A model generated the notes under the pieces. The model saw only the letters and a list, made by a program, of their open reading frames with translations, did no database searches and was not told the origin of the DNA. 64,000 nucleotides of DNA from Halobacteriales archaeon QS_5_68_33 (GTDB lineage Archaea; Halobacteriota; Halobacteria; Halobacteriales; Haloarculaceae): contig PXRS01000077.1 in the NCBI GenBank assembly GCA_003023785.1, positions 57,033 to 121,032 of the forward strand, in the 5' to 3' direction. Shown in pieces: positions 2,761 to 25,943 of this stretch (its first letter is position 1; every line of letters begins with the position of its first letter). The position numbers were made by a program, and so were the translations under genes.

Positions 2761-4659
2761 ATGGCGACACACGGGGACAGCCCCGCCGAGCGGTTCCTCC
2801 GGAAGGCCTTGGTGCCCGTGTGCGTGCTCTCGGGGGCGCTCGTCGTCTCGGGGTTTTTCTTCCCGTGGTTCGTCGGGGGCGTGGTGTCGGGCGAGGGGTG
2901 GCTCGTCCTCGCGCTCCTGTTTTTCGGCACTGGACTGGCCTACCTCGCGCTGTTGCCGGTGCAGGCGCCCGAATCGGACGAGACGGTCGGCCGGGGGCGG
3001 ACGGTCAGGTACCTGCTGCGGATCCGCCACGGCCACTTCCGGCGGGCCATCGAACCCTTCTTCGAGCGCCAGGACGCGGTGACCTTCGGCGTGCCCGTCG
3101 CCGTGCTCGCGCTCTTCTTTCTCGTTCGCCTCCTCGCGCCCGGCGCGACCACCGGAGCCATCGGCGCCGCGGAGGCGTTCGTGCTGGGGGACATGGGGTG
3201 GCTGTTTCTGGGCGCGGTCCTGCTCGCGGTGCTCTACTGCGTCTTTCTCCTCGCGGGACCGTGGGGGGACGTCCGCCTCGGCGGCCCCGACGCCGAACCG
3301 ACCTACACGTATCCGACGTACTTCGCCCTCTTTTTCGCGGCGGGCATCGCCGCCGGCATCGTCTTCTGGGGTCCCGCCGAGGCGCTCTTTCACTACGGGT
3401 CCCCGCCGCCGTACTTCGGGACGGCGCCCGGGTCGAGCGCGGCGGCCGTCAACGCGCTCGCCTACGCTTTCTTTCACTGGGGGGTTTCGGCGTGGAGCCC
3501 CTACCTCGTGGTCGGGCTGCCCGTCGCGTATTTCGTCTACGACCGCGGCGCGCCGCTGCGGGTGTCGACGCTCTTGACCCCCTTCCTGGGCGTCGACGGC
3601 CTGGACTCTCTCCCCGCGAAACTGGTCGACGTCCTCGCCATCTTCGCGACCATCGGCGGCGTCGGCACCTCCGTCGCCTTCGTCAGCCAGCAGTTCCTCG
3701 CCGGCATCGACTACCAGTGGGGCGTCACCTACGGCGTCCTCGGGCCGGTCGTCCTCGTGGGGGGGCTGACCGCCATCTATGTCGTCACCGCGGGGTCGGG
3801 CGTCCACCGCGGGATCCGCCGGGTCGCCGGCGTGACCGTCGGCCTCTTCGCCCTCTTCGGCCTCCTCCTGCTGGCGCTCGGCCCGCGCTCGACGGTGTTC
3901 GCCTACGGCGGCCGGGCGCTCGGGCGCTACGCCGCGAACTTCCTCCCGATGAGCCTCTATCTCGGCGGGGAGTGGGTCGCCGACTGGACGGTCTGGAACT
4001 GGTCGTGGTGGTTCTCGTGGGCGCCGTTCGCCGGGCTCTTCCTCGCGGCCCTCTCGAAGGGCCGGACCGTCCGGACCGTCGTTGCGACGGCCGTCGGCGC
4101 CACCTCCCTGGCGACGATGGCCTGGTTCCTGGTGATGGGCGGGACGACCCTGGCGCTCCAGCACGGCGGTGCCGCGGACGTCCTCGGCGCCGTCGAGGCC
4201 TACGGCGGGTCCGAGGCCGTCGCCGGCTTCCCCGTCTTCGCCGCCCTCCCCATGAGCCAGCTGCTCATGTTCCTCTTTCTGGCGCTCATCGTCGTCTTCA
4301 TCACCACTTCGGCGGCCGTCTCGACGCTCGTCGTCGCCGTCCTCGCGACGAAACGGGCGTTCGCGCCGACGACCGGCGACGTCGTCTTCTGGGGCGTCCT
4401 CCAGGGTGCGGTCGCCACCGCGGTGCTGGCGCTGGGCGGCGGTCAGTCCCTCCAGGACGTGGCCGTTCTCACCGGCGGCCCGTTCGCGCTCGTCTCCGTC
4501 CTCGCCCTCGCGGGCCTGACCTGGACGCTCCGCCGCGACGAGGCCGATCGCGACCGGGTTCGTCGGTCGCTCCCCGGCAAGGCCAGGGCCGCCCTCGCCG
4601 CCCGCGACGTCACGCTCCTCCCGGAACGGCCCGACCTCGACGACGAGAAACGCGAGTGA
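2761..4659 (+). CDS. BCCT-family transporter (betaine/choline/carnitine type)
   Basis: 632 aa polytopic protein with BCCT-like blocks (FFHWGVSAWSPYLVVGLPVAYF, WTVWNWSWWFSWAPFAG). Carries a membrane N-terminal extension of about 100 aa. Confidence 0.88.
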   Translation: MATHGDSPAERFLRKALVPVCVLSGALVVSGFFFPWFVGGVVSGEGWLVLALLFFGTGLAYLALLPVQAPESDETVGRGRTVRYLLRIRHGHFRRAIEPFFERQDAVTFGVPVAVLALFFLVRLLAPGATTGAIGAAEAFVLGDMGWLFLGAVLLAVLYCVFLLAGPWGDVRLGGPDAEPTYTYPTYFALFFAAGIAAGIVFWGPAEALFHYGSPPPYFGTAPGSSAAAVNALAYAFFHWGVSAWSPYLVVGLPVAYFVYDRGAPLRVSTLLTPFLGVDGLDSLPAKLVDVLAIFATIGGVGTSVAFVSQQFLAGIDYQWGVTYGVLGPVVLVGGLTAIYVVTAGSGVHRGIRRVAGVTVGLFALFGLLLLALGPRSTVFAYGGRALGRYAANFLPMSLYLGGEWVADWTVWNWSWWFSWAPFAGLFLAALSKGRTVRTVVATAVGATSLATMAWFLVMGGTTLALQHGGAADVLGAVEAYGGSEAVAGFPVFAALPMSQLLMFLFLALIVVFITTSAAVSTLVVAVLATKRAFAPTTGDVVFWGVLQGAVATAVLALGGGQSLQDVAVLTGGPFALVSVLALAGLTWTLRRDEADRDRVRRSLPGKARAALAARDVTLLPERPDLDDEKRE

Positions 4660-4679
4660 CGGCGACGGCCGGGCCGTCA

Positions 4680-4709
4680 TACGGTCGGTTGTCGGAACCT
4701 CGACCCGTA
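4680..4709. repeat. internally deleted family 1 element (30 bp)
   Basis: Exact 13-nt left TIR TACGGTCGGTTGT preceded by TCA, with a degenerate right end CGACCCGTA. Lies about 20 nt downstream of the BCCT stop. Confidence 0.6.
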
Positions 4710-4780
4710 ATCGTCCCGAGAGGAGTTGTCCCGGTGGGGTTCGACGGCAGATATTAGGGAGCGTCGGGCGAGGGGAAGGT

Positions 4781-5161
4781 ATGAAACGGACTGTCAGCAC
4801 CGACGAAGCGCCCGCCGCCGTCGGGGCGTACAGCCAGGCGACGACCACCGGCGACCTGCTGTTCACCGCCGGGCAACTCCCCCTCACTGTCGAGGGCGAA
4901 CTCCTCGACGACGAACCCGTCGCCGTCCAGGCCCGCCAGTGTCTCGAAAACGTCGAGACCATTCTCGCATCCGAGGGCCTGGAGATGAGCGACGTGCTGA
5001 AGGTGACGGTCTTCCTCGACGACGTGGACGACTTCGCCGAGATGAACGACACCTACGCCGGGTTCTTCGAGGAGGACCCCCCGGCGAGAAGCGCTGTGGA
5101 GGTGGGCGCCGTCCCGAAAGGCGCCGCCGTCGAGATCGAGGCCATCGCCGCTGTGGAATGA
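4781..5161 (+). CDS. ridA: RidA/YjgF-family reactive-intermediate (enamine/imine) deaminase
   Basis: 126 aa. APAAVGAYSQA...GDLLFTAGQLP...PARSAVEV signature of the YjgF/RidA family. Confidence 0.9.
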   Translation: MKRTVSTDEAPAAVGAYSQATTTGDLLFTAGQLPLTVEGELLDDEPVAVQARQCLENVETILASEGLEMSDVLKVTVFLDDVDDFAEMNDTYAGFFEEDPPARSAVEVGAVPKGAAVEIEAIAAVE

Positions 5162-5162
5162 G

Positions 5163-5549
5163 GACGACGACCACCACGCCCGGGCGACGGCACTGTTCAA
5201 CGCGATCCAGGCCGGCGACCTCCCATACCGGCCGCTGTACACCACGGGTTACGTCCTCGCCGAGCTCGTCACCCTCGGGCTTGCGCGAGCGAACCACACG
5301 CTCGCTGCGACTGCCCTGCGACGAATCCGCGCCTCACCGTCGGTAACGGTGCTTCATCCTGACGAACCGATGTTCGCGGCCGTCTGTAACGAGTTCTACC
5401 GATACGACGACCAGGATATTTCACTCGTCGATCACGCGACCAGTGTGCTCGCCGACGAGCGCGATGTCGAACACGTCTTTACCTTCGATCCGGACGACTT
5501 TCGCACGCTCGGGTTCACCGTGGTCCCCGACGACACCGGCGAGGCGTGA
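5163..5549 (+). pseudogene. PIN-domain (VapC-like) toxin remnant lacking its N-terminus
   Basis: The open frame reads DDDHHARATALFNAIQAGDLPYRPLYTTGYVLAELV...DISLVDHAT...VFTFDPDDF, a PIN core. No start codon or first acidic strand remains because the frame runs into the ridA stop. No antitoxin ORF is adjacent. Confidence 0.45.
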
Positions 5550-5591
5550 CGCACGATGCTCGTCATTGCCGAGCCGATGGAACACCTCGTA

Positions 5592-7310
5592 TCAGAACAG
5601 TCCGTGAACGGTGCCGTCGTCGTCGACGTCCATGTTCGCGGCGGCGGGCTCGGCGGGGAGGCCGGGCAGGGTAAGCACGTCGCCGGTGAGCGCGACGAGA
5701 AAGCCCGCGCCGGCCGAGGGATAGACCTCCTTGACTTCCAGCGTCCAGTCCTCGGGCGCGCCTTTCAGTTCGGGGTCGTCCGACAGCGAGTGGAAGGTCT
5801 TGGACATGCAGACGGGCACGTCGTCGAAGCCCAACTCCTCCATGCGCTCGATGTCGTCCTCGGCGTCGCCGTGATACTTGACGCCATCCGCGCCGTATAT
5901 CTCGGTCGCGACCGTCCCGATCTTCTCCTGGATGGAGTCGTCGAGGTCGTACAGCGGTTCGAACGTCGAGTCGGCCGCGGCGGCGGCTTCCAGTTTCTCG
6001 GCGAGGTCGATTCCGCCCTCGCCGCCGTCGCTGAAGACGTTGGACTCCGCGGCCTCGACGCCCAGGTCCGCCTCGCAGTGTTCGATGACCGCGGCGACCT
6101 CGGCGTCGGTGTCCCCGGGGAAGCGGTTGACCGCCACGACGACCGGGACGCCGAACTTCCGGAGGTTGCTGACGTGCCTGTCGAGGTTCTCGAACCCCCG
6201 CCTGACGGCGTCGACGTTCTCCGCGTCGAGTTCGTCCAGGTCGGCCGGCCACATGTCGTAGCCGTGGTATTTCAGCGCGCGGACGGAGGCGACGAGCGTG
6301 ACCGCGTCCGGTTCCATGTCGCCGAACCGGCAGACGATGTTCATGAACTTCTCCGCGCCGAGGTCGGACCCGAACCCGGCTTCGGTGACGACGGTGTCGG
6401 CGAGGCGCGAGGCGACGTCGTCGGCCATCAGCGAGTTGGTGCCGTGGGCGATGTTCGCGAAGGGGCCGCCGTGGACGAACGCGGGCGTCCCCTCGATGGT
6501 CTGGACGACGTTGGGTTTCAGCGCGTCCTTCAGGAGGATGGAGACGGCGCCGGTGGCATCGATGTCCTCGACGGTGACGGGGTCGCCGTCCTCGTCGTAG
6601 GCGACGATGATCCGGGCGACCCGCTCTTTGAGGTCGGCGATGGAGTCGGCCAGACAGAGCACGGCCATCAGTTCGGAGGCGGCGGTGAGGATGAACCCGT
6701 CCTCGCGGGGGACGCCGGTGACGTCCCCGCCCAGACCGACCGTCGTCTCCCGGAGGACGCGGTCGTTCATGTCGATGGCGCGGGGCCAGTTGACCCAGTT
6801 GACCGCGACGTCGAGGTCGTTGCCCTGCTTGATGTGGTTGTCCAGCATCGTCGAGATGAGGTTGTGCGCCGAGGTCAGCGCGTGCAGGTCGCCCGTGAAG
6901 TGGAGGTTGATGTCCTCCATGGGGAGGACCTGCGAGTAGCCGCCGCCGGCGGCGCCGCCCTTGACCCCGAAGACGGGCCCCAGCGACGGTTCGCGGATGG
7001 CGACGAGGGCGTCGGTCCCGATCCGGTTGAACGCCTGGCCCAGCCCGACCGTCGTCACCGTCTTGCCCTCGCCCATCGGCGTCGGTGTCATCCCCGTCAC
7101 GAGCACGAGGTTCGCCGTCGCCTCGCGCTCGTTCCTGATCCGCTCGATCGCCGGGAGTTTCACCTTCGCCTTGTGCTCGCCGAACAGGTCGAGGTCGCCC
7201 CGCTCCAGCCCGTAGGGCGCCACCACGTCCGCGACGTGGGATTTCTCGACTGACTGTGCGATCTCGTAGTCGGTGGGAACGGACTCCTCGCTCTCCTCCA
7301 GTGAGGACAT
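5592..7310 (-). CDS. fhs: formate--tetrahydrofolate ligase
   Basis: FTHFS motifs (VTGMTPTPMGEGKTTVTVGLGQAF, full-length alignment-like layout). The ATG at 7310 is preferred over the track start at 7340. Confidence 0.93.
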   Translation of the reverse strand: MSSLEESEESVPTDYEIAQSVEKSHVADVVAPYGLERGDLDLFGEHKAKVKLPAIERIRNEREATANLVLVTGMTPTPMGEGKTVTTVGLGQAFNRIGTDALVAIREPSLGPVFGVKGGAAGGGYSQVLPMEDINLHFTGDLHALTSAHNLISTMLDNHIKQGNDLDVAVNWVNWPRAIDMNDRVLRETTVGLGGDVTGVPREDGFILTAASELMAVLCLADSIADLKERVARIIVAYDEDGDPVTVEDIDATGAVSILLKDALKPNVVQTIEGTPAFVHGGPFANIAHGTNSLMADDVASRLADTVVTEAGFGSDLGAEKFMNIVCRFGDMEPDAVTLVASVRALKYHGYDMWPADLDELDAENVDAVRRGFENLDRHVSNLRKFGVPVVVAVNRFPGDTDAEVAAVIEHCEADLGVEAAESNVFSDGGEGGIDLAEKLEAAAAADSTFEPLYDLDDSIQEKIGTVATEIYGADGVKYHGDAEDDIERMEELGFDDVPVCMSKTFHSLSDDPELKGAPEDWTLEVKEVYPSAGAGFLVALTGDVLTLPGLPAEPAAANMDVDDDGTVHGLF

Positions 7311-7542
7311 ACGCGGTGATTTTCCCGTCCCACTCATCAATGTTAGCGTACCTATAGATACCCGAATACGACGTGTTTGAACGCGGAACCCGGCCGGTCC
7401 GCGACCCGGAAAAAAGGGTGCGACCGGAGGGTTTCACGGACTGTCAGCGCCAGCCTGTCGGCGCCGCCCATCGTGATCCGCCGGTGACACGCTGTGCTTC
7501 GACTGATGGGCCGGCGGCGTCGACGGAGCGGGACCGCCCGGC

Positions 7543-9039
7543 TCATACGGTCGAGCGGTCCGCGACGTAGGCCCTGAGGTCGCGTTCGACCCCGGGGTCC
7601 ATCGGCGGCCGCTCGTAGCTCTCGAGGAGCGCGTCGACGCGGTCGCGTCCGAGTCCGAACGCCGAGGGTCGGTCGGCGGCCCAGTCGTCGTGGGCGCGCT
7701 TGTCGAGGACTGCGGACCGATGGAACGACGCCGATGCCTCGTCCTCTTCGAGGAAGTGGCCGGCCGGGTCGGCGTCGGCGATGCGGTCGAGCGCGAGCGT
7801 CCCCTCGTCGACGGTCACGCCCTGGCGAAACCGGGCGAGCGAGCGGAGCAACTCGCAGTCGAGGACGAACTTCTCGGGAGAGACGGCGGCGTAGGATTCG
7901 AGGACGCCCGCGGCGTTCAGGGCGAGGTCGACGCCGCCGAACGCGGTGACCGCGCCGAGCAGCCCCGATTCGAGGCCGCCCTGGTAGTCGACGGTCTTGG
8001 CGTCCGAGAGCGCCCCGCCCGCCCGGCAGGGCAGGCCGTAGTGGCGCGCCAACTGGCCGGCGAGCGCGACGAACAGCGCCGACTCCGGGCCGCCGATGGA
8101 GAGCGAGCCGTAGCGGTCGTCGATGGTCGCAGAGGGGACGCCGTAGACCACCGGGGTCCCGGGGTTGACGAGCTGGGCCAGCGCGACGAACGCGAGCGTC
8201 TCGGCGTTGGCCTGGACCAGCGACGCCGCGAGCGTCGGCGGCCCCGAGGCCCCTGCCATGGTGAACGACGAGACGACCAGCGGCTGGCCGTGGTCGGCGT
8301 AAGTCAGCAGGCCGCCGAGCATCGCCCCGTCGATGCTGCGGGGTGGCGTCGTGTTGACCAGTCCCGCGACGACCGGGTCGGAGCGCTCGCCCGCCTCGAA
8401 CGCGACGTCGGCCCGGTCGGCGAACGCGATCTCGACCATGTCCATGCAGGCCTGCGCGCGCTCTCCCCCGCGGGTCGGACCCATGACCGGCTTGTCAGTC
8501 AGGGTCAGCGACCGTTCCAGCATCGCGAGGTGCCTGTCGGCGCGCGGGACGTCCGTCGGCTCACAGAGGCTGTACCCCGCACACGTGATCACCTCCTCGG
8601 CGTGGGCGAGTTTCACGAGGCGCTCGTAGTCCGCGAGGCGGGCGTCCCGTCGTTCGTAGTTCGCCGCGCCAGCGGATCCGGCGACGTGGCGGTCCTGGTC
8701 TCCGCTCCCGCCGTCGAACGTGTGGACCGTCGAGGGGCCGTAGGCGGGCGCGCGGACTGGCGGGCCGTCACCGACGGTGACGTCTTTCTCCGGGTCGCGG
8801 GCGTGGAGCGTGAACGCGTCCGGCGCCCGGTCGACGGCGTCGGTGAGGAGCCCCCGCGGGAGCGTCGCGACGCCGTCGTCGTCGACGCGTCCTCCGGCGT
8901 CCTCGACGACCGCCCGGGCGCGCTCGTGGGTCAACTGGATCCCCACCTCCGCTATCACGTGCATCGACGCCTCGTGGACGGCCTCGACGCTCGCCGCGTC
9001 GAGTCTGTCCAGGCCGGGCGTCGCGTCGGAACTGTCCAC
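7543..9039 (-). CDS. MttB-superfamily methyltransferase, non-pyrrolysine type (quaternary-amine:corrinoid methyltransferase-like)
   Basis: 498 aa uninterrupted ORF with trimethylamine-methyltransferase-family layout and no in-frame TAG. Confidence 0.75.
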   Translation of the reverse strand: MDSSDATPGLDRLDAASVEAVHEASMHVIAEVGIQLTHERARAVVEDAGGRVDDDGVATLPRGLLTDAVDRAPDAFTLHARDPEKDVTVGDGPPVRAPAYGPSTVHTFDGGSGDQDRHVAGSAGAANYERRDARLADYERLVKLAHAEEVITCAGYSLCEPTDVPRADRHLAMLERSLTLTDKPVMGPTRGGERAQACMDMVEIAFADRADVAFEAGERSDPVVAGLVNTTPPRSIDGAMLGGLLTYADHGQPLVVSSFTMAGASGPPTLAASLVQANAETLAFVALAQLVNPGTPVVYGVPSATIDDRYGSLSIGGPESALFVALAGQLARHYGLPCRAGGALSDAKTVDYQGGLESGLLGAVTAFGGVDLALNAAGVLESYAAVSPEKFVLDCELLRSLARFRQGVTVDEGTLALDRIADADPAGHFLEEDEASASFHRSAVLDKRAHDDWAADRPSAFGLGRDRVDALLESYERPPMDPGVERDLRAYVADRSTV

Positions 9040-9170
9040 TGGCCGCCCGTTTTCGAGAGCGCCACAAAAGGATTTGCGCGCCGACCACGAGCGGTCAGAC
9101 GGGCGTCACGTCGTGGTTCATCTCGATCGTGTGACAGGATTTTGCGGGGGTCGCAACCCACGGTCGTGGC

Positions 9171-9620
9171 ATGGAGTACCACGAAGCGGTGAACCGGCTG
9201 GAGCGGTTGCGGCGGCTCCGGCCCAAGCTGGGGACCGAGACGACCGCCGCGCTCCTGGCGCACCTGGACGACCCCCACGAGGACCTGACCTGGGTACAGG
9301 TCGCCGGGTCGAACGGCAAGGGGAGCACGGCGCGCGTACTCGGTCGGATCCTCCGCGAGGCGGGCCTCTCGGTCGGGTGTTACACCTCGCCGGACCTGAA
9401 CGACCTCCGGGAGCGCGCCACCGTCCGGGGGCAGCCAATTCCGAAGGCCGAGGTGTGCGGGTTCGTCGGGGCGGCCTGGCCGTTCGTCGTCGACCGCGGC
9501 GCGACCATCGTCGACGTCGGCGGCGAGTCGACGCGGCCGGGCGCCGACATGCTCGACGACGTCACCGGTCTCGAAGACGCCGCGATGCGCCGCGTCGTCG
9601 CCACCGCCGGCAACGAGTAG
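9171..9620 (+). pseudogene. mosaic remnant of a folC-folP (folylpolyglutamate synthase / dihydropteroate synthase) fusion gene
   Basis: 149 aa. The FolC N-terminus (VAGSNGKGSTARVLGRIL..GCYTSPDL) is joined in frame to two short DHPS blocks (IVDVGGESTRPGA; MLDDVTGLEDAAMRRVV), followed by a stop. Confidence 0.55.
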
Positions 9621-9989
9621 CGCGAAACTCGAAAAACACGAAAACTGATGTTTTGTGAACGGCGGTTCGACGACCGGTCCGTCCCGACGGTCCCCGTCGT
9701 CGTTCCCGCGGGCGTCTCGCCGGACGTGGGCCGGAAAAACGGACGACCACGCCACACAGGTGCAAAATTCGGACACCCGGACGCGGTCCGGAAGCCACGG
9801 ACCTCCGCACACGCGGTCGTCCGCGTTCGCTCGTCGTGTAACGGAACTGTCGGTAAGGCTGTCATTTAATATCGGACAGCACTTCCCTCGAAAAACGAGC
9901 ATGAAACTGACAGGAACGCCGGCCGCGCGGGCCGTCGACAGTGCAACGAACGGCGGCGACCGAACGACACACGCCGGGGGGCGAGGCCG

Positions 9990-12518
9990 ATGAGCGGCGA
10001 CCTCCCGGACCACGCGCGGACCGTGGTCCTCGGCGCCGGCATCGTCGGGAACAGCCTGACCTACCACCTCGCGGAGCAGGGTCGCGACGACATCCTGCTG
10101 GTCGACAAGGGGCCCCTCCCCGACCCCGGGGGCTCGACCGGGCACGCCTCGAACTTCCTGATGCCCGTCGAGCACTCCAAGGAGATGACCCACCTCACGC
10201 GCGAGAGCATCGAGCAGTACAAGGACATGGACACGTTCGTCAACAGCGGCGGGATCGAGCTGGCCCGCACCGACGAACGCGTCGCGGAGCTCGAGCGCCG
10301 CGTCCAGTCGGCGAAGTCCTGGGGCGAACCGGCCGAACTGCTCACCCCCGAGGAGGTCGAGGAGCTCGTCCCCTACGTCAACACGGACATCGTCAAGGGC
10401 GGATTCTACAGCAAGGGCGCGGGGACCTGCGACCCGCTCCGGGCCGGCGAGGTGATGCGGGCCCGCGCCGACCACGCGACCGAGGGCGGCCTGACGGTCT
10501 CGCCCAACACCGAAGTGCTCGACATGCACGTCGAGGCCGGCGAAATCCAGGCCGTGAAGACCGACCGCGGGACCGTCACCGCCGACGAGGTCGTCATCGC
10601 CGCCGGGCTCTGGAGCCCGAAACTCGCGGCGATGGCGGGCGTCGAGATCCCGCTCACGCCGGCGGTCCACCAGCTCATCAGCGTCGGGCCGATCTCCTAC
10701 TTCGAGGACTACGAGGGCGAGATCTCGTTCCCCGTGGTCCGGGACATGGACACCCAGATGTACGAGCGCCAGCACGGCAACGACATGGAGGTGGGCTCCT
10801 ACCAGCACCGGCCCATCCTCTGGGACGTCGAGGACATCCCCTCGATCGACGAGGCGCCCCTCTCGCCGACCCAGCCACCCCTCACGGACGACGCCTTCGA
10901 GCAGTCCATGGAGAACGCCCTGGAGATCGTCCCCGAACTGCTCGACGACCCGGAGGCCGGCGTCCGCCACGAGATCGACGGCCTGCTGTCGGTGACGCCC
11001 GACGGCGCGCCGCTGCTTGGCCCGCTCCAGGACGTCGAGGGACTGTGGTCGGCCGCCGCCGTCTGGATCAAGGAGGCGCCGGCCATCGGCGAGGCCCTCG
11101 CCCAGTGGATGACGCGGGGCTGGTCGGACATCGACCTCCACAGCTCGAACGTCAACCGGTTCAAGGAGTGGGGCACCTCCCGCGAGTTCGTCAAGGACCG
11201 CGCCCACGAGGGTTACCGGAAGATCTACGGCATCGTCCACCCCCGCGAGCAGTGGCAGTCCTCGCGCCCCCTGCGGACGAGCGCCTTCTACCACCGCCAG
11301 GACGACCTCGACGCCCGCTTTTTCCAGGCCGGCGGCTGGGAGCGCCCCCAGTGGTACGACTCCAACGAGGACCTCGTCCGGCGCTACAACGAGGAACTCG
11401 ACGGCCTCCTGCGGGCCAACGAGTGGGACTCCCGGTGGTGGTCGCCGGTCATCCTCGGCGAGCACCTGCACATGCGCGACAAGGTGGCCATGGTCGGGGA
11501 CATGGGCTTTGCCATCTTCGACCTGCTGGGACCGGGCGCGACCGAGTACGCCGAGAGGATGGCGGTCGGCCGGATGGACGTCGACGTCGGCAAGTCCGTC
11601 TACACGCCGGTCCTCGCGCCCAACGGCGGGTTCGTCTCGGACCTTTCCATCGTCCGGATGGGCGAGAACCACTACCGGGTCATCACCGGCGGCTCCGTCC
11701 AGGGACCGGACAAGGCGCACTTCCGCTCGCACCTGCCCGAGGACGGCTCGGTCCAGCTGGTCGACCGGTCCTCCCAGCTCTGCACGCTCGGCGTCTGGGG
11801 ACCCGACGCGCGGGACGTGGTCGACCCCGTCACCGAGGAGGACATGTCCCACGAGGCGTTCGCCCCCTACACCGCCCAGCACGTGACCATCGGCGAGGTC
11901 GACGCCTGGGCGCTCCGAATATCGTACGTCGGCGAGCAGGGCTGGGAGATCTACGCCCCGATGGACCAGGCCGAGCGGCTCTGGGACACCCTCTACGAGG
12001 CCGGCCAGGACCACGACATCCGCCCCGTCGGCATGGGCGTCTACGGGACGACCGGCCGCATGGAGAAGGGGTATCGCCTCTACGGGCACGAACTCGAACT
12101 GGAGTACACGCCCGCCGAGGCCGGCCTGACCTTCCACGGCGTCAAGGACGCCGACTTCGTCGGGAAGGAGGCCTACGCCGCCGGTATCGACGAGGAGAAC
12201 GCGGCGACGCTGTGTACGCTCTCGGTCGACGACCACCGCTCCGAGGACGGCGACCGCCGGTTCATGCTCGGGAACGAACCCGTCCTCGACGACGGCGAGG
12301 TGCTCGTCGACGACGAGGGCCGCCGGTCGTACGTCACAAGCGCCGGCACCGGGCCCACCGTCGGCAAGCACCTCCTGATGGCGTATCTCCCCCGGGAGTA
12401 CGCCGAGGAGGGGCGGGGCCTCCAGGTCGAGTACATGGGCGAACGGTACCCGGTGACGGTCGAGGTGGCCGGCAGCCGGCCGCTGTTCGACCCCGAAAAC
12501 GAGCGGATACGGAGCTAA
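9990..12518 (+). CDS. dimethylglycine/sarcosine dehydrogenase-type FAD oxidoreductase fused to a GcvT-like folate-binding aminomethyltransferase domain
   Basis: 842 aa. N-terminal dinucleotide fold VVLGAGIVGNSLTYHLAEQG, a DAO-type domain, and a C-terminal GcvT domain. Immediately followed by etfBA. Confidence 0.88.
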   Translation: MSGDLPDHARTVVLGAGIVGNSLTYHLAEQGRDDILLVDKGPLPDPGGSTGHASNFLMPVEHSKEMTHLTRESIEQYKDMDTFVNSGGIELARTDERVAELERRVQSAKSWGEPAELLTPEEVEELVPYVNTDIVKGGFYSKGAGTCDPLRAGEVMRARADHATEGGLTVSPNTEVLDMHVEAGEIQAVKTDRGTVTADEVVIAAGLWSPKLAAMAGVEIPLTPAVHQLISVGPISYFEDYEGEISFPVVRDMDTQMYERQHGNDMEVGSYQHRPILWDVEDIPSIDEAPLSPTQPPLTDDAFEQSMENALEIVPELLDDPEAGVRHEIDGLLSVTPDGAPLLGPLQDVEGLWSAAAVWIKEAPAIGEALAQWMTRGWSDIDLHSSNVNRFKEWGTSREFVKDRAHEGYRKIYGIVHPREQWQSSRPLRTSAFYHRQDDLDARFFQAGGWERPQWYDSNEDLVRRYNEELDGLLRANEWDSRWWSPVILGEHLHMRDKVAMVGDMGFAIFDLLGPGATEYAERMAVGRMDVDVGKSVYTPVLAPNGGFVSDLSIVRMGENHYRVITGGSVQGPDKAHFRSHLPEDGSVQLVDRSSQLCTLGVWGPDARDVVDPVTEEDMSHEAFAPYTAQHVTIGEVDAWALRISYVGEQGWEIYAPMDQAERLWDTLYEAGQDHDIRPVGMGVYGTTGRMEKGYRLYGHELELEYTPAEAGLTFHGVKDADFVGKEAYAAGIDEENAATLCTLSVDDHRSEDGDRRFMLGNEPVLDDGEVLVDDEGRRSYVTSAGTGPTVGKHLLMAYLPREYAEEGRGLQVEYMGERYPVTVEVAGSRPLFDPENERIRS

Positions 12519-12520
12519 GC

Positions 12521-13285
12521 ATGGACGTGCTCGCCTGCATCAAGCGCGTCCCGGACACGGGGGCGAAGATCGTCCTGACCGACGACGGGCAGGACATCGA
12601 CACCAGCAGCCTCGGCTTCACGATGAGCCCCCACGAGGAGTGTGCCATCGAGGAGGCCATCCAGCAGGTCGAGGAACACGGCGGGTCGACGACGGTGCTG
12701 ACGCTCGGTCCCGGGGACGCCGACGAGCAGCTGCGCACCGGCCTCGCGATGGGCGTCGACCGCGCGACCCACCTGGAGACCGACGGCGAGGAGTGGAGTC
12801 CCCGCGCGACCGCGAACGCCATCGCCGACGCGGTGCGCGACGAGGACCGGGAGTTCGACCTCCTGTTTTTCGGCAACGAGTCGGCCGACACCGCCAACTA
12901 CCAGGTGGGCGTCCGCGTCGCCCGCGAGCTCGGCCTGCCCTGCGTCGCGGGCATCAAGACCCTCGACGTCGCCGACGGGACCGCCGTCGCCAGGCGCGAG
13001 GTCTCGGGCGGCGAGGAGGTCTACGAACTCGACCTGCCCGCCGTGATATCGGTCAAGGAGGGGATCAACGAACCGCGGTACGCCTCGATGCGGGCGAAGA
13101 TGCAGGCCCGCCGCGAGGAGGTACCCGCCGAGACGCCCGACCACACCGAGGGGCCGGGCGCCTTCGAGAAGGTCCGCCTCGAAACGCCGGCGGGCGACGA
13201 CTCCGACGCCGAGATCCTCGGCGAGGGACCGGCGGCGGTCCCGAACGTGGTCGAGGTGCTCGGAGACGACGTGGAGGTGCTCTGA
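12521..13285 (+). CDS. etfB: electron transfer flavoprotein beta subunit
   Basis: [19 protein letters not shown]... typical EtfB. Internal ATG in frame with track ORF 9941..13285, 2 nt after the upstream stop. Confidence 0.9.
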
Positions 13286-13286
13286 G

Positions 13287-14252
13287 ATGGTGCTCGCGTT
13301 CGTCGAACACGAGGCCGGCGACCCCGCCGAGACGTCGCTGGAGGCGCTCTCGTTCGCCCGCGAACTCGCGGCAGACACCGACACCGACCTCTCGGCGGCC
13401 GTCTTCGGCGAGGAGGCCGCCGGGACGGCCGACGCGCTCGGCGACCACGGCGTCGCCGAGGTCCACCACGTCACGCACGACCGCCTCGACGGCTACGCGC
13501 CCCGGGCGTGGGGCGAAACGCTGGCACAGCTCGTGGAGGTCATGGACCCCGTCGCGCTCGTCGCGCCGGGGAGCGACCGCGGCCACGAGGCACTCGCCCA
13601 CGCCGGTGCGACGCTCGACCTGCCGGTGGTCGCCAACTGCACCGCCGCCGAGGTACCCGGCGCGACCGCCGAGAAGGCCGCCCCCGTGGCCGCCGACGGC
13701 GGTGTCGCGGCGGAGGGCGGCGCGGCGAGCGAGTGGCAGGTCACCCGCCACCGCTGGGGCGGCAGCCTCGCCGGGGAGGCCGCCGCGGCCACGGTCGAAC
13801 CGTTCGAACCCGACCTCGACGACCCCCAGTTCAGGGTGCAGGTCACCCGGACCGAGGAATCCGACGTCGAGGGCGTCCCGCTGGGCGAGGCGCGGGTCGT
13901 CGTCAGCGGCGGGCGCGGCGTCGGGAGCGCCGAGGACTTCGACCAACTCGAAGAACTGGCCGACCTGCTCGGCGGGGCGCTCGGGGCCTCCCGTGCGGCC
14001 GTCAACGAGGGCTGGCGGGCGCACGACGACCAGATCGGCCTCACGGGCGCGAAGATCAGCCCCGACATCTACATCCCCTGCGGGATCAGCGGCGCCGTCC
14101 AGCACATGGTCGGGTGCAAGGGCGCGAGCAACATCCTCGCGATCAACACCGACCCCGAGGCCGCGATCATCCAGAAGGCCGATTACGCCGTCATCGGCGA
14201 CCTCCACGAGGTCGTCCCCGAACTCAACGAGGCCCTCCGCGAGGAACAGTAG
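13287..14252 (+). CDS. etfA: electron transfer flavoprotein alpha subunit
   Basis: 321 aa with C-terminal FAD motifs ([28 protein letters not shown]). Confidence 0.9.
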
Positions 14253-14376
14253 TCGGGCACGACCCGGTCCACGACAGGTACGTATCCTGTCAATTCTCGT
14301 TTCGGGTCCGTCCCGCTGTCGTGTCGCAGCGTCACAGGACGGACCGGCGGTCGCTCATCCTGCCCCGGAACGACGG

Positions 14377-14943
14377 TCAGCCGTCGCGCTCGGAACCGAT
14401 CGTCCAGAGCGCCCGGGAGAGCGCCCACAGCGAACAGTCACACCGCTGCGCGACTCCGCGGCAGGTCCGGAGGTAGCGCTCGTACTCCTCGGCGGCGGGC
14501 GGGTCGGGGTAGGGCGCGTCGAGCTCGCCGGCGGCCCGGAGCGTCTCCCACTCGCGGCGGCTCGCGACGAGGTAACGCTGGGGGTGGAGGAAGGCGAGAA
14601 ACGCCGACCCGACCGGGACGTCGACGCCCGACAGCGCCGTCAGCGACCCGAGTTTCGCCGCCGTCCCGTCGGCCGCGACGGCGTCGGCGACGGCCCCGTG
14701 GACGGCTTCGTAGCTGTTCTCGCCGTAGCGTTCCTCGGCGGCCCGGCGGTCGGCGTCGGGGTAGGCACCGAGGTACCGGCGGTAGTACCACTGGACGACC
14801 CATTCGGCGTCCCGCCAGCCGAACTCGCCGCTCGCGAGCGCGTCGGGGAGCGTCTCGCGGTGCTCCGCCTCGACGGCGTAGAGCGGTTGCACCGTCTCGT
14901 AGGCGTCGGCCTTCCGGGCGACGAGGGCGGGCGTCAGGTCCAT
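14377..14943 (-). CDS. hypothetical protein
   Basis: Acidic 188-aa ORF with haloarchaeal-like composition, starting at MDLTPALV. No motif recognised. Confidence 0.55.
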   Translation of the reverse strand: MDLTPALVARKADAYETVQPLYAVEAEHRETLPDALASGEFGWRDAEWVVQWYYRRYLGAYPDADRRAAEERYGENSYEAVHGAVADAVAADGTAAKLGSLTALSGVDVPVGSAFLAFLHPQRYLVASRREWETLRAAGELDAPYPDPPAAEEYERYLRTCRGVAQRCDCSLWALSRALWTIGSERDG

Positions 14944-15081
14944 CGCCCGGAACTCGACGGGCCATCGGCTTGATAGTTCCTCCGGCGGCGGGCACCCCGG
15001 CGGCCGCTCGCGTCGGTCCCGAGGCAAGATTCAAACCCGCCGGGGCTGAACCTTTGTCCACAATGATCCACGTTCAAGTGG

Positions 15082-17196
15082 GTGTCACGGATGTCCAGTG
15101 ACGACGAGCCCGTCAAGACCATCTGCCCGTACTGCGGCGTCGGCTGCGGTATCAAGGTGAACCCCGGCGAGGAGCCGGGCGACATGCGGTTCATGCCGTG
15201 GGGGGACGCGCCGGTCAACGAGGGGCGGGTCTGCATCAAGGGCGGCGCGGCGACGGAGGTGGTCGACCACGAGGACCGCCTGACCGACCCCCTGATCAAG
15301 GAGGACGGCGAGTTCCGCGAGGCCTCCTGGGCGGAGGCCTACGACCTGGTCGTCGGCGAACTCGAGCGGATCCGCGAGGAGTACGAGCCCGACGCGATGG
15401 GCTTTTTCGGCTCCTCGAAGACGATGAACGAGGAGAACTACCTCCTCCAGAAACTGGCCCGGCGCTACGGGACCAACAACGTGGACAACTGCACCCGGAT
15501 GTGTCACGCCTCGACGGTGTGGGCGCTCCGGACGAGCCTGGGCGCGGGCGCGATGACCAACAGCATGGCCGACCTGCGCGAGGCGGCCGACGTCTTCTGG
15601 ATCCAGGGGGCAAACCCCGGCGAGCAACACCCCATCGCCAACAGCGTCTACTTCCGGCAGGCGGTCAACGAGGGCGCGACCGTCATCCAGGTCGACCCCC
15701 ACGCCAACAAGACGACGCGGTCGTTCAAGATAGACGAGACCGACCGCCACGTGCACCTCCAGCTCGAACCCGGGACGGACATCCCCCTGCTGAACGTCGT
15801 CCTCAAGACGGTTCTGGAGAACGGCTGGGTCGACGAGGAGTTCGTCGCGGAGCGCACCGAGGGGTTCGACCACCTCGAAGAGACCCTCGCGGACTTCGAC
15901 AAGGCGGCCGCCGCCGAGGAGTGTGGCGTCCCCCTCGAAGACATCGAGGCTGCCGCGGAGACGTACGCCACGGCCGAGAACGCGGCCATCTTCACCGGGA
16001 TGGGGATGAGCCAGCACACCTGCGGCGTCGACAACGTGCAAAACGAGATCAACCTCGCGCTGGTGACGGGTAACCTCGGACGGCCGGGCACCGGCGTCAA
16101 CCCGCTGCGCGGCCAGAACAACGTCCAGGGGACGTGTGACGTGGGCGCGATGCCGAACGTCCTCCCGGGCTACCAGCTCGTCGACGACGACGAGGCCCGC
16201 GAGTCCGTCGAGGACGTCTGGGGCTTCGAGGTTCCGGACGAGCCCGGGCTGACGAACGTCGAGATATCCCACGAGGCGGGCGAGTCGATCCACGGGCTGT
16301 ACATCATGGGCGAAAACCCCGTGATGTCCGAACCCGACGGCAACCGCGTCGAGGAACGTCTGCAGGAGTTGGAGTTCATCGTCGCCCAGGACATCTTCAT
16401 GACCGAGACGGCCAAATACGCCGACGTGGTCCTCCCGGCGACGACCTGGGCCGAGCGCGGCGGCACCGTCACGAACACCGACCGGCGCGTCCAGCTGATG
16501 CGCCCCGTCGAGAAGGTCCACGAGAACACGAAACACGACCTCGACATCCTCACCGAAGTGGGCACCCGCCTGTTCGGCGACCCCTTCGACTTCGCGGACG
16601 TCGAGGCGGTGTTCGAGGAACTCCGGCAGGTCTGTCCCAGCTACCACGGGATGACCTACGACGCGCTCGACGAGGCGGGGATCCAGTGGCCCTGCTACGA
16701 GCCCGGCGACGAGGGCGACCAGTACCTCTACGAGGACGGCTTCGAGACCGACAGCGGCCTCGGGCAGATCGAGGGCGTGCGCCACCAGGAACCCGAGGAG
16801 ACACCCGACGAGGAGTACCCGCTCATCCTGACGACGGCGCGACTGGAAGAGCACTACAACACGGGGACGATGAGCCGGCGCTCGCCGACGCTGAAGCGCC
16901 AGTACCCCGGGAACTTCGTCGACGTCCACCCGAACGACGCCGAGCGCTACGGCATCGAGGACGGCCAGGAGATCCGGCTCGAATCCCGACGCGGCGAGAT
17001 CACCGTCGAGGCGCACGTCACCGAGGACATCAAGGAGGGGTCGGTCTGGACGACGCCCCACTTCGCGGCCGCCTCCGCCAACCGTCTGACCAACGACGTG
17101 CTCGACGAGCGCGCCAAGATCCCCGAGTACAAGGCCGCCGCCGCCGAGATAGAGGTCGACATCGAACCGACGGACGCCGCACCCGCCGACGACTAG
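15082..17196 (+). CDS. cytoplasmic molybdopterin oxidoreductase, formate dehydrogenase alpha-type (Cys form)
   Basis: N-terminal CPYCGVGCG Fe-S motif, a Cys-His active-site pair (TRMCHASTV), bis-MGD domains, and no Tat signal. An alternative ATG lies at 15091. Confidence 0.8.
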   Translation: MSRMSSDDEPVKTICPYCGVGCGIKVNPGEEPGDMRFMPWGDAPVNEGRVCIKGGAATEVVDHEDRLTDPLIKEDGEFREASWAEAYDLVVGELERIREEYEPDAMGFFGSSKTMNEENYLLQKLARRYGTNNVDNCTRMCHASTVWALRTSLGAGAMTNSMADLREAADVFWIQGANPGEQHPIANSVYFRQAVNEGATVIQVDPHANKTTRSFKIDETDRHVHLQLEPGTDIPLLNVVLKTVLENGWVDEEFVAERTEGFDHLEETLADFDKAAAAEECGVPLEDIEAAAETYATAENAAIFTGMGMSQHTCGVDNVQNEINLALVTGNLGRPGTGVNPLRGQNNVQGTCDVGAMPNVLPGYQLVDDDEARESVEDVWGFEVPDEPGLTNVEISHEAGESIHGLYIMGENPVMSEPDGNRVEERLQELEFIVAQDIFMTETAKYADVVLPATTWAERGGTVTNTDRRVQLMRPVEKVHENTKHDLDILTEVGTRLFGDPFDFADVEAVFEELRQVCPSYHGMTYDALDEAGIQWPCYEPGDEGDQYLYEDGFETDSGLGQIEGVRHQEPEETPDEEYPLILTTARLEEHYNTGTMSRRSPTLKRQYPGNFVDVHPNDAERYGIEDGQEIRLESRRGEITVEAHVTEDIKEGSVWTTPHFAAASANRLTNDVLDERAKIPEYKAAAAEIEVDIEPTDAAPADD

Positions 17197-17320
17197 CGGC
17201 CGGCGACGGCGCACCGCTCCCTGCGGTGGCGTCTCCCCGACCGCAGGACCCCGCTCGCCGGTGGTTCCGACGGAGGACCGGGACAACCCTTTTGCTCGCC
17301 GCCGCCCGTACTGACGCGTG

Positions 17321-19072
17321 ATGACACTCCGCACACCCCGGCGTCTGCTCCGGGTCGACCTCTCGGCGGGGTCGGTCGAGAGCGTCCCGGTGCCCGACGC
17401 GTGGCGCCGCCGCTACGTCGGCGGCAAGGGCCTGGGCGCCCGCTATCTCTACGAGGAACTCGACGCCGGGACGGACCCGCTGGGCCCCGATAACGCCCTC
17501 CTCTTCCTGCTCGGGCCGGTGTCGGGGCTGCTCCCCGGGGAGTCGCGCTACGCCGCCGTCACGAAGTCGCCGCTTACGGGCGGCTTCCTCGACTCCTACG
17601 CCGGCGGGACGTTCCCCGAGACGCTCGCCGGCGCGCTCGCCGACCACGTCGGGGTCCTGGTCACGGGCGCGGCGTCCGAGCCCGTCAGGCTGGCGGTCGA
17701 AGCCGACGGCGCGACGCTCGAGCCGGCCGGGACGTGGGGCGCTGACACCGCCGAGACGGCAGCGGCGTTTCCCGACGCGGCCGTCGCCTGCATCGGCCCG
17801 GCGGGCGAAAAGCGGGTCAGGTACGCGACCATCGCCTCGGACGCCGGCGAACACCACGCCGGCCGCGGCGGGGCGGGCGCGGTCATGGGCGCGAAGCGCC
17901 TGAAGGCCGTCGTTGTCCGGGGCGACCCGCCCGAGGGCCTCGACGCGCTCCGCGAGGAGTACGCCGACCGCTACCGCGAGGGCGACACCGGGCGGTGGCT
18001 CGGGGCCAGCGGCACCGTCGAGACGGTCGATTTCGCCAACGCCGTCGGCGCGCTCTCGACCAGGGGCTGGCAGGCCACCGAGTTCGCGGCCGCCGACGAC
18101 GTCGGCATCGACGCCGTCCGGGAGCAGGCCCACGACCGGGAGCACGACGGCGACGACCCGCGGGGCTTCCGGGTCGACACCGACGAGGGCGAAACGGTCC
18201 CGCGCGGCGCGACGGCGATGTCCCTGGGCGCCGGACTGGGCATCGAGGAGTTCGACGCCGTCGCCGCGCTGGGCGAGACCTGCAACCGCCTGGGGGTCGA
18301 CCTCATCAGCGCCGGGAGCGCGGTCGCGTGGGCGGTCCGCGCGGGCGAGGAGGGACTGCTCGACCGTGGCCTGCGCTTCGGCGACCCCGAGGGCGCGCGG
18401 GCGCTGCTGGGCGAGATCGCGGGACGCGAAACGGAACTCGGGGACGCGCTGGCCGACGGCGTCGACGCCGCCGCCGAGCGGTACGGCGGTTCGGGACTGG
18501 TCCCGACGGTCAAGGCGATGGAACTGCCCGCCTACGACCCGCGGGGCGCCCACAGCATGGCGCTGGCCTACGCGACGAGCGACCGCGGGGCCTGTCACCG
18601 GCGGGCCCGGACCGTCGAGCGCGAGGTGTTCGACGGCGGCTGGAGTGCGAAGCGGGCCGCGCGGGCGGTCGCCGACGAGCAGAACCAGCGGTCGGTGCTC
18701 TGGAGCCTCGTCGTCGACGACTTCGTCGGTGACGTCTTCGCGGACCTGGGGGCCGAATGGCTCGACGCGGTCGGCCTCGACACCGAGGGCGACCTGGAGA
18801 CGGTCGGCGAGCGCATCTGGACGCTGACCCGCCTGTTCAACGTCCGCGAGGGGGTCTCGCGGGCCGACGACGAACTCCCGCCGGCGCTCCGGGCCGCGCC
18901 CGACGGGCCCGGCGAGGGGGTCGACCCCGGGCGGTTCGACGCGATGCTCGACGCCTACTACGGGATCCGGGGGTGGGGACCGGACGGCCGGCCGACGCGG
19001 GCGACGGTCGAGCGACTCGGCCTCGCGGCGGCCGTCGACGGGGAGACGACGCTCGCGACCACACAGCCATGA
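17321..19072 (+). CDS. aldehyde:ferredoxin oxidoreductase family (tungstopterin) protein
   Basis: AOR N-terminal domain (LLRVDLSAGSVESVPVPDAWRRRYVGGKGLGARYL) with full-length AOR layout. Confidence 0.85.
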   Translation: MTLRTPRRLLRVDLSAGSVESVPVPDAWRRRYVGGKGLGARYLYEELDAGTDPLGPDNALLFLLGPVSGLLPGESRYAAVTKSPLTGGFLDSYAGGTFPETLAGALADHVGVLVTGAASEPVRLAVEADGATLEPAGTWGADTAETAAAFPDAAVACIGPAGEKRVRYATIASDAGEHHAGRGGAGAVMGAKRLKAVVVRGDPPEGLDALREEYADRYREGDTGRWLGASGTVETVDFANAVGALSTRGWQATEFAAADDVGIDAVREQAHDREHDGDDPRGFRVDTDEGETVPRGATAMSLGAGLGIEEFDAVAALGETCNRLGVDLISAGSAVAWAVRAGEEGLLDRGLRFGDPEGARALLGEIAGRETELGDALADGVDAAAERYGGSGLVPTVKAMELPAYDPRGAHSMALAYATSDRGACHRRARTVEREVFDGGWSAKRAARAVADEQNQRSVLWSLVVDDFVGDVFADLGAEWLDAVGLDTEGDLETVGERIWTLTRLFNVREGVSRADDELPPALRAAPDGPGEGVDPGRFDAMLDAYYGIRGWGPDGRPTRATVERLGLAAAVDGETTLATTQP

Positions 19073-22994: not shown

Positions 22995-23627
22995 TCACCC
23001 CGGGACCATCTGGGCGACGAGTTCGTCCTCGAAGCTGAGGAGGCCGCGGAAGACGAGTCCGGCGGCCAGGAACAGGCCGGGGTCGGCCTCCTCGCGCAGC
23101 TCCGCGAGGAAGGGGTCGACCCACGGCAGGAGGTGCTCGTCGAGGAAGACCCGCTCGTAGCCGAAGGCCGCCTCCTCGCCGCCGCGCTGGCGCTCGACGA
23201 GGTGGCGCAGGAAGGCCAGTTCGACCGCAATGAAGTCGGCCTCCTCGGGGTAGTCCTCGGCGGGTTCCCAGCCCACGGCGGCGTAGCTCTCCTCGACGTC
23301 GGCGACGCCCTCCCCGAGGAAGTCCGCGTCCTCGCGGTAGTAGGTTTCGTGGGGCAACACCGGCGGCCGCGGCCCGACGAACAGCCGGGTGTACTCCCGT
23401 TCCAGTTCCCTCCGGACCGCGTCGACCTCGCGGTCGCGGTTGTCGGCGACCCACTCGTCGAGCATCGCGAACCCCTCGTCGAGGGTGGGCGTGACCGACT
23501 CCTCGGGCAACTCGACGTCGCCCGCGAGGAGGTTGGCGACGAAGGCCTCGGTCGGCGCGTCCCAGAAGGCCTCGACGAGGAAATCGAGCATCTCCAGGCG
23601 CGCCTCGTAGACCGCCCCGTCGTCCAT
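22995..23627 (-). CDS. TorD/DmsD-family redox-enzyme maturation chaperone
   Basis: 210 aa from MDDGAVYEARLEMLDFLVEAFWDAP...EREYTRLFVGP... The start overlaps the upstream stop by 1 nt. Confidence 0.7.
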   Translation of the reverse strand: MDDGAVYEARLEMLDFLVEAFWDAPTEAFVANLLAGDVELPEESVTPTLDEGFAMLDEWVADNRDREVDAVRRELEREYTRLFVGPRPPVLPHETYYREDADFLGEGVADVEESYAAVGWEPAEDYPEEADFIAVELAFLRHLVERQRGGEEAAFGYERVFLDEHLLPWVDPFLAELREEADPGLFLAAGLVFRGLLSFEDELVAQMVPG

Positions 23628-25825: not shown

Positions 25826-25865
25826 CGGTCGTGGTTCGTGATAGCACACCTAAAGGGTTTGGTCA

Positions 25866-25943
25866 TACTGCCGGCTGTAAGTCTGTCAAGAATTTCGCCG
25901 CCCCGGAGCGGCGAATATCCTCACGGAGTTACAGCCGGCAGTA
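25866..25943. mobile_element. MITE-like hairpin element, family 3 (78 bp)
   Basis: TIRs TACTGCCGGCTGTAAGT ... ACTTACAGCCGGCAGTA-like. Flanked by TCA (25863-65) and TCA (25944-46). The core hairpin TTCGCCGC-CCCGGA-GCGGCGAA is related to the family 1 core. Confidence 0.75.

Follow-up and report, generated by a model that had tools for sequence, protein, structure and literature searches.

Proposed core of a mobile haloarchaeal island for glycine betaine-type osmolyte catabolism in a Haloarculaceae genome

Genes of the interval

The 64,000-nucleotide stretch of contig PXRS01000077.1 analysed here (the window; contig C77 of genome G000 in the coordinates below) comes from Halobacteriales archaeon QS_5_68_33, a 71%-complete metagenome-assembled genome (MAG) of the Haloarculaceae, and its positions 2761 to 19072 hold a dense set of genes for solute uptake, methyl transfer, amine oxidation and one-carbon (C1) metabolism. 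We propose, with a probability of roughly 60%, that this interval forms the central part of a larger haloarchaeal island, mobile by horizontal transfer, that serves the catabolism of glycine betaine-type osmolytes. Genes were called by scanning the open reading frames (ORFs) of the window with Pfam and NCBIfam profiles at curated cut-offs; since its G+C content is ~70%, most of its long ORFs are spurious, and the real genes were picked by these family scans. Two plus-strand ORFs, at 5556-7253 and 7690-9192, were discarded as spurious, having no family match and real genes on the minus strand, and an Rfam scan of positions 1-22000 gave no match. Synteny was assessed by searching loci of relatives with the window proteins in tblastn (L-numbers denote loci, G-numbers genomes), and phyletic profiles cover a sample of 61 relatives; the genomes are related to each other and are not independent samples. 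Those named below include the same-genus MAG G001, G005 (100% complete), G018 (94% complete), G022 (Haloarculaceae archaeon H-GB1-1) and cultured isolates, whose genomes come without reported completeness values. All nine genes named in the original prediction were recovered intact and in the families assigned there, among the following features:

985-2274, minus strand: K+ channel (Pfam Ion_trans_2 and TrkA_N), just outside the interval
2761-4659, plus strand: BCCT transporter (PF02028, 422 bits; best NCBIfam match the glycine betaine BCCT model, below its cut-off)
4781-5161, plus strand: RidA, a Rid-family enamine/imine deaminase (TIGR00004, 148 bits against a cut-off of 106)
5163-5549, plus strand: PIN-like remnant (weak Pfam PIN match, 22.9 bits against a cut-off of 23.6)
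5592-7340, minus strand: Fhs, formate--tetrahydrofolate ligase (NF010030, 812 bits against a cut-off of 652)
7543-9039, minus strand: MttB-family protein (PF06253, 404 bits over residues 7-496; ORF uninterrupted, no in-frame stop)
9171-9620, plus strand: FolC-FolP remnant, 149 aa (in-frame matches to an 853-aa paralogue)
9990-12518, plus strand: fusion of DAO, FAO_M, GCV_T and GCV_T_C domains, 842 aa (all four above their cut-offs)
12521-13285, plus strand: EtfB (PF01012)
13287-14252, plus strand: EtfA (PF01012 and PF00766)
14377-14943, minus strand: orf188, a conserved protein of 188 aa, divergent from fdhA (no Pfam or NCBIfam family passes)
15082-17196, plus strand: FdhA, a cytoplasmic Cys-type formate dehydrogenase (TIGR01591, 741 bits against a cut-off of 666; likely start ATG 15091)
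17318-19072, plus strand: AOR, a tungsto/molybdopterin aldehyde oxidoreductase (AFOR_N and AFOR_C)

The four-domain protein matches the architecture of a family of ~830-860 aa, and aligns end to end with the dimethylglycine oxidase (DMGO) of Arthrobacter (1pj5, 477 bits), scoring 293 bits against mammalian dimethylglycine dehydrogenase (DMGDH). The etfB start codon (ATG) lies 2 nt after the stop of this gene and the etfA start 1 nt after the etfB stop, and the DMGDH-EtfB-EtfA trio is syntenic at at least 8 loci. Because of this coupling to etfBA we read the enzyme as a probable dehydrogenase rather than an oxidase, and the shared operon is genomically consistent with the predicted delivery of its electrons to electron transfer flavoprotein (ETF). 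Orthologues 63-92% identical to the dehydrogenase occur in 16 of the 61 relatives. The second and third demethylations, of dimethylglycine (DMG) and sarcosine, had also been assigned to it; the DMGDH family and the etfBA operon favour this in part, but one gene would have to serve both steps, and that a single enzyme handles both DMG and sarcosine is an assumption. Diverging from this operon, mttB and the downstream fhs run in the same direction on the minus strand. The intervening FolC-FolP remnant corresponds to residues 22-132, 629-644 and 689-710 of the 853-aa paralogue found at the same position in the same-genus MAG, and could reflect either real decay or an assembly artefact; full-length FolCP paralogues occupy this position in at least 12 loci, and the housekeeping FolCP copy lies elsewhere (G000:C32:16226-18781).

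In FdhA, Cys141-His142 aligns with the active-site position of solved formate dehydrogenases (9t1s), the arginine of the PLRGQNNVQG motif is present, and no signal peptide was detected; its best solved relatives are 9t1s, 7bkb and 1aa6. Those of the AOR protein are 9mqx (295 bits), 8c0z and 1aor (253 bits), followed by the formaldehyde oxidoreductase (FOR) 1b25 (233 bits), so that by sequence it appears closer to general AORs than to FOR. The orf188 product, a member of clusters of archaeal hypothetical proteins, is always found alongside FdhA and may act as a regulator or accessory factor. Further along the window, 23627-31671 and 37421-50915 encode a polyferredoxin with an MvhD/FlpD domain, a Mo/W-type ABC ATPase with TOBE domains, an HdrD-like CCG protein, a 1148-aa membrane-linked molybdoenzyme with 4Fe-4S and cytochrome b subunits, and two MoeA genes, one fused to a PBP-like domain; together these genes make up a neighbourhood that serves FdhA and AOR in cofactor supply and electron transfer.

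The BCCT protein presumably imports betaine-type solutes, and its orthologues lie in the cluster at at least 8 loci, adjoined by the K+ channel gene in G001, G005, G018 and several MAGs; RidA is likewise syntenic in G001, G005, Halopenitus and Halomicrococcus. The PIN-like element directly 3' of ridA lacks a start codon upstream; it is probably what remains of a toxin gene and stands outside the pathway. The absence of FolD, GlyA and a corrinoid protein from the window that accompanied the original prediction is contradicted by none of our scans, which did not annotate the whole window; the sole B12-binding domain of the genome and its FolD matches are on other contigs.

Recurrence, mobility and extent of the island

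The synteny comparison across Halobacteria suggested alongside the original prediction revealed that the gene set recurs in many genomes of several families. In 22 other Halobacteria genomes mttB and fhs lie no more than 7 kb apart, and the string EtfA-EtfB-DMGDH-FolCP-MttB-Fhs was found in G001, G005, G007 and G018 (FolCP missing from the G007/L057 locus, FolC only in G018), in Halobacterium yunchengense, H. bonnevillei, Halopenitus persicus, H. malekzadehii and Halocatena marina, on a plasmid of Halomicrococcus gelatinilyticus, in a Natrialbaceae MAG and in others. This string occurs with or without BCCT, RidA, the K+ channel, FdhA with orf188, and AOR, the first three being frequent flanks. 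As the same genes recur together in so many other Halobacteria, their co-location lies far beyond chance. The proposed link between Fhs and FdhA is also upheld, the two genes being associated in many genomes: FdhA orthologues adjoin Fhs in G005, G035, G039, G050 and G052, and share a contig with it at a distance of ~2-3.5 kb in G043 and G059. Among genomes the block of FdhA and orf188 shifts its place within the cluster, orf188 moving with FdhA when it is relocated (G005; Halobacterium yunchengense, L044; MAG loci L055 and L057), while the island includes AOR in the window, in G005, G050 and G022, and in a Natrialbaceae MAG.

The MttB tree disagrees with taxonomy, the subclade of the window joining Haloarculaceae, Halobacteriaceae and Haloferacaceae; since one copy is moreover borne on a plasmid, we regard the island as mobile. 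That copy, on Halomicrococcus gelatinilyticus plasmid unnamed2 (L056, 276770-298191), comprises the whole island, in keeping with horizontal spread, and the plasmid also bears an MtgC-like gene at a distance of ~23 kb. Across the class MttB is rare, being present in 7 of 300 Halobacteria genomes of at least 95% completeness.

The island also extends beyond the window. The contig carries four further island genes, 3.5-9 kb ahead of the first position of the window:

G000:C77:48207-51031 (L137:11105-14211), upstream: DmdA-like GcvT-family protein, 471 aa, together with the MetF-like gene
G000:C77:50594-51031, ~6 kb before the window start: MetF-like reductase
Upstream of the window: threonine/serine ammonia-lyase (TIGR01127, above cut-off)
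Upstream of the window: second BCCT

Relatives hold FolD, PabB, glycerate kinase and an aminotransferase nearby. Across the 61 relatives, MttB was found in 11, the DMGDH family in 24, the MetF-like and DmdA-like genes each in the same 24, and Fhs in 27, namely the 24 island genomes and 3 more, so that Fhs is nearly limited to island genomes. All 11 MttB genomes fall within the set of 24 and carry MetF; given this nesting, MttB appears to be an accessory to a broader C1 island. The DmdA-like protein is 70-88% identical across families and usually adjoins the MetF-like gene. Its closest relative is the dimethylsulfoniopropionate (DMSP) demethylase DmdA (3tfh), with a score for NF009133 of 245 bits, below the cut-off of 410, and this best match led us to reject an identity as a LigM-type O-demethylase. 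The pair resembles a module for direct demethylation onto tetrahydrofolate (THF), for which DMSP or a betaine may be the substrate.

RidA enzymes clear the enamines released by pyridoxal phosphate-dependent serine/threonine dehydratases. RidA had been predicted to quench imines formed by the dehydrogenase, a role that yields to a better-fitting partnership: as a lyase of the dehydratase kind belongs to the island, and its gene adjoins RidA in Halarchaeum nitratireducens (L071) and is separated from RidA by ~2.5 kb in G022 (L143), RidA more plausibly serves the threonine/serine ammonia-lyase of the island.

The MttB homologue and the proposed pathway

The prediction that the MttB homologue is a betaine enzyme was strengthened by its closest solved relatives, two Desulfitobacterium hafniense MtgB entries (9yce/2qne, E about 1e-94), and by a largely retained betaine-binding motif. 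It is a non-pyrrolysine member of the family, with a full-length PF06253 match, no in-frame UAG codon and a TIGR02369 score of 263 bits against a cut-off of 525. In D. hafniense numbering the betaine-binding residues of MtgB are Y97, R312, H348 and F356 (PMC13080624); at these positions the window protein has Tyr, Arg, Asn and Tyr, thus keeping 3 of 4 when the tolerated F356Y is counted. Kinetically the F356Y variant of MtgB is wild-type, and Phe at Y97 is tolerated. Most haloarchaeal Fhs-linked orthologues read Y-R-H-Y; Y-R-N-Y was observed in the window, its genus, Halopenitus and Halobacterium bonnevillei, and F-R-N-Y in H. yunchengense. Between close orthologue pairs dN/dS is ~0.15, indicating purifying selection and hence a functional mttB gene. 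We therefore propose, from homology and the residues of the binding site, that the MttB homologue demethylates glycine betaine to DMG.

In assembling these genes into a pathway, we infer its substrates, the direction of C1 flow, the coupling to ETF and the substrate of AOR. Betaine would enter through the BCCT carrier or carriers, and the MtgB-like MttB homologue, as its homology and binding-site residues suggest, would take the first methyl group to leave DMG. To judge by domain architecture and operon, the DMGO/DMGDH-like enzyme would then oxidise DMG, and probably sarcosine, with electrons passing to EtfBA and the C1 unit becoming methylene-THF. Should the first methyl group reach THF, the upstream MetF-like enzyme could oxidise the methyl-THF; FolD, encoded elsewhere in the genome, would carry the C1 unit to formyl-THF, from which Fhs would yield formate and ATP, and FdhA would convert the formate to CO2. 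AOR would most plausibly oxidise a small aldehyde, such as free formaldehyde, to the acid. Glycine and methylene-THF could give serine, from which the ammonia-lyase would form pyruvate and ammonium while RidA clears the enamine, and the FolC-FolP paralogue, decayed here, may together with the p-aminobenzoate genes of relatives raise folate supply. The original reading, betaine to CO2, thus receives partial support as a putative haloarchaeal variant of the MtgB pathway, but its first step is left without the known partners.

Missing partners and alternative readings

As first written, the demethylation of betaine by MttB could not proceed through the mechanism known for such enzymes: MtgC, MtgA or MtgD, and RamA were not found in this lineage, complete genomes included. 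Several observations, beginning with those behind this result, weigh against the proposed pathway. No match was detected to PF02607, the B12-binding_2 domain of MtgC, in G000, G001, G005 or 4 of the 5 cultured carriers (which were searched for B12-binding domains only); to PF02007 (MtrH/MtgA) in G000, G001, G005 or G018, with a match present in G050; to PF14574 (RamA) in G000, G005 or G018, with matches present in G050 and G022; or to PF02574, the homocysteine domain of BHMT and MetH, in G000, G001, G005 or G018. The first step is therefore without a known mechanism in the lineage of the window, whose own genome is a MAG of 71% completeness. At the position of MtgB H348 the window protein carries Asn, and in MtgB the H348N substitution raises Km 26-fold and lowers Vmax to 5%, a damaging though not inactivating change (PMC13080624). 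MttB is missing from 13 of the 24 island genomes, and MetF tracks the DmdA-like protein perfectly rather than MttB specifically. Only one DMGDH-type gene was identified in each of G000, G001, G005 and G018, and an ETF:quinone oxidoreductase was not clearly found in G005. Furthermore, FdhA and AOR are adjacent in four genomes without the island (G025, G048, G051 and G058), and earlier reports describe no growth boost from betaine in Haloquadratum walsbyi and no growth of Halorhabdus utahensis on it.

A number of candidates for the missing functions were considered and set aside. The sole PF02607 match of G018 is weak (17.9 bits, below cut-off, in a 737-aa frame), the sole PF02310 domain in crown-clade genomes belongs to the small subunit of methylmalonyl-CoA mutase (TIGR00640, 172 bits), and the 10 kb on either side of each crown MttB orthologue contain no MtgC-like gene. 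BHMT as an alternative first step was ruled out by the lack of a PF02574 match. The Pterin_bind proteins found are all FolP-type, being the housekeeping FolCP, the cluster paralogue and a third gene resembling dihydropteroate synthase (DHPS); the FolP domain of the cluster FolCP was rejected as an MtgD substitute because the paralogue scores as a true DHPS (TIGR01496, 289 against a cut-off of 162), and because FolCP is FolC-only in G018, missing from the G007/L057 and L058 loci, and decayed in the window. None of the recurrent unknown neighbours is a B12 binder; they comprise an ABC ATPase, HTH_10 and ArsR regulators, Usp, a BBE-type FAD oxidase, PabB, an M20 peptidase or proteins of no family. 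Nor was a crown-specific catalytic change found in MttB, for example a Zn-thiolate site, there being only four minor substitutions and none in the active site.

In the basal genomes G050 and G022 the same island comes with the complete MtgB/MtgC/RamA set, to which G050 adds an MtgA-like gene. Their gene orders are FolCP-BCCT-MtgC-AOR-DMGDH-FolD-MetF-MtrH/MtgA-like-RamA ... FdhA-Fhs-MttB in G050, and FolCP-MttB-Fhs ... RidA-GlyA-MtgC-ammonia-lyase-FolD-DUF1638-RamA-AOR in G022. The latter genome holds 11 MttB-family paralogues, three MtgC-like corrinoid proteins and RamA, an unusually large repertoire for a haloarchaeon. On one reading, the crown clade, having lost MtgC, MtgA and RamA with its betaine site intact and its MttB under purifying selection, would demethylate betaine by a mechanism undescribed for the MttB superfamily; we hold this view tentatively and rate it as rather unlikely. 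Candidate methyl acceptors would be free cobamide, the stand-alone B12 subunit of methylmalonyl-CoA mutase, or THF or a thiol reached by direct transfer.

Some of the same evidence fits other readings of the island. A core of DMGDH, EtfBA, FolCP and Fhs might degrade DMG, sarcosine or similar N-methyl amino acids, with MttB an add-on for another quaternary amine such as proline betaine, carnitine or butyrobetaine, or else the DmdA-like enzyme might itself perform the first demethylation onto THF and feed MetF. Consistent with this, the 13 island genomes without MttB keep DMGDH-family genes, Fhs, MetF and the DmdA-like gene; the last two co-occur in 24 of 24 genomes and are adjacent; the DMSP demethylase nearest to the DmdA-like protein methylates THF directly; the Asn at H348 departs from MtgB; and members of the MttB family with other betaine specificities are known. 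Set against it, the DmdA-like score falls well under the DmdA cut-off, and we know of no GcvT-family betaine demethylase. MtgB remains the best solved relative of the MttB homologue, and the haloarchaeal clade conserves R312 and both positions of the aromatic cage, a pair not conserved in the MttB-family enzymes MtcB, MtpB, MthB and MtyB (PMC13080624). On balance we consider this alternative unlikely. A reductive or assimilatory use of the C1 genes, from CO2 or formate through formyl-THF to methyl-THF, with Fhs and FdhA serving biosynthesis or an anaerobic methyl branch, seems to us very improbable. Fhs and this class of formate dehydrogenase are reversible, FdhA is nearest to CO2-reducing and F420- or Hdr-linked formate dehydrogenases, and basal G050 carries the full corrinoid machinery typical of anaerobes; yet the methyl-amine dehydrogenase-ETF operon, the BCCT importers and the ammonia-lyase point to catabolism, and the stretches examined showed no CO dehydrogenase/acetyl-CoA synthase, no genome-wide search having been made.

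A further possibility is that the interval juxtaposes modules that share cofactors or regulation, namely osmoprotection (K+ channel and BCCT), formate/aldehyde metabolism (FdhA, orf188 and AOR) and folate C1 metabolism. In its favour, FdhA-AOR adjacency outside the island extends to a separate contig in G018, AOR, Fhs and FdhA are contiguous in G052, the FdhA-orf188 block changes place in the cluster, and the downstream MoeA genes, Mo/W ABC ATPase and second molybdoenzyme could serve a formate/aldehyde module. However, many independent arrangements place FdhA or AOR within the island, for example with AOR flanked by mtgC and the dehydrogenase gene in G050; island genomes are enriched in both (FdhA orthologues in 12/24 against 8/37 of the others, AOR in 16/24 against 11/37); and the product of Fhs is formate, all of which leaves mere juxtaposition quite improbable. 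The claim that FdhA and AOR are dedicated parts of the pathway has nonetheless to be relaxed to that of an associated module, as the pair also occurs in island-free genomes, and we read FdhA-AOR as a semi-independent formate/aldehyde module that is often recruited. The pairing of AOR with a formate dehydrogenase points, indirectly, to formaldehyde as its aldehyde, and suggests a formaldehyde-to-CO2 module in haloarchaea. Examples of the pair are found at C1:1694158-1697977 of G058 and C1:2221083-2225703 of G025; the contiguous AOR-Fhs-FdhA set of G052 (C5:170875-177334) lies in a genome without MttB, MetF or DMGDH.

Among known systems, the proposed betaine pathway resembles in its logic that of Ruegeria pomeroyi DSS-3, in which MtgB, MetF2, THF-linked C1 oxidation, the DMG and sarcosine steps, a BCCT carrier and a serine ammonia-lyase have been shown experimentally (PMC12478193). 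The island shares with this MtgBCD/MetF2 system an MtgB homologue, a MetF paralogue (a dedicated paralogue being an R. pomeroyi-type trait that is matched by the MetF-like gene on the contig of the window), THF-linked C1 oxidation, DMG/sarcosine genes, BCCT and an ammonia-lyase (PMC12478193). Such genes are co-located in some bacteria, and the host here is likewise presumably aerobic. Unlike in R. pomeroyi, the host is archaeal, MtgC, MtgD, RamA and DUF1638 were not found in the lineage of the window, and the island uses Fhs, Cys-type FdhA and AOR, with the dehydrogenase in an operon with EtfBA. With the MtgB/MtgC/MtgA/RamA system of D. hafniense, and of Methanolobus vulcani, it has in common the PF06253 fold, with Y97 and R312 kept and F356 replaced by Tyr; it differs from D. 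hafniense in the Asn at H348 and in that MtgC, MtgA and RamA were not found in the genome or in the complete genomes of the clade.

Similarly, the dehydrogenase resembles the mitochondrial DMGDH/SARDH-ETF system in its four-domain architecture and in the predicted passage of electrons to ETF and of C1 units to folate, but has one enzyme gene in place of two, and mammalian DMGDH is less similar to it than DMGO is. The Arthrobacter dimethylglycine oxidase cluster was reportedly described by Meskys in 2001; the island shares its FAD-GcvT fusion and differs from it in the coupling to EtfBA. In four haloarchaea, DMGO-like genes beside BCCT genes had suggested the use of betaine, DMG or sarcosine (Anderson 2011, PMC3102087). 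The island, with MttB, Fhs, FolCP, FdhA and AOR, is much larger and is undescribed in that survey (PMC3102087). A literature search on haloarchaeal MttB and betaine catabolism returned no functional study, in agreement with the view that this arrangement is uncharacterised in haloarchaea.

Glycine betaine is a dominant organic osmolyte in hypersaline systems, where haloarchaea are usually regarded as betaine importers, not degraders, and where, to our knowledge, betaine mineralisers are poorly known. The conserved, mobile and rare island supplies a concrete marker set and points to cultured strains suited to tests of betaine catabolism. Its orphan MtgB asks whether an MttB-family methyltransferase can function in the absence of a corrinoid protein, a THF methyltransferase and an activase of its own; if this proves true of the crown clade, the three-component corrinoid architecture would not be obligatory.

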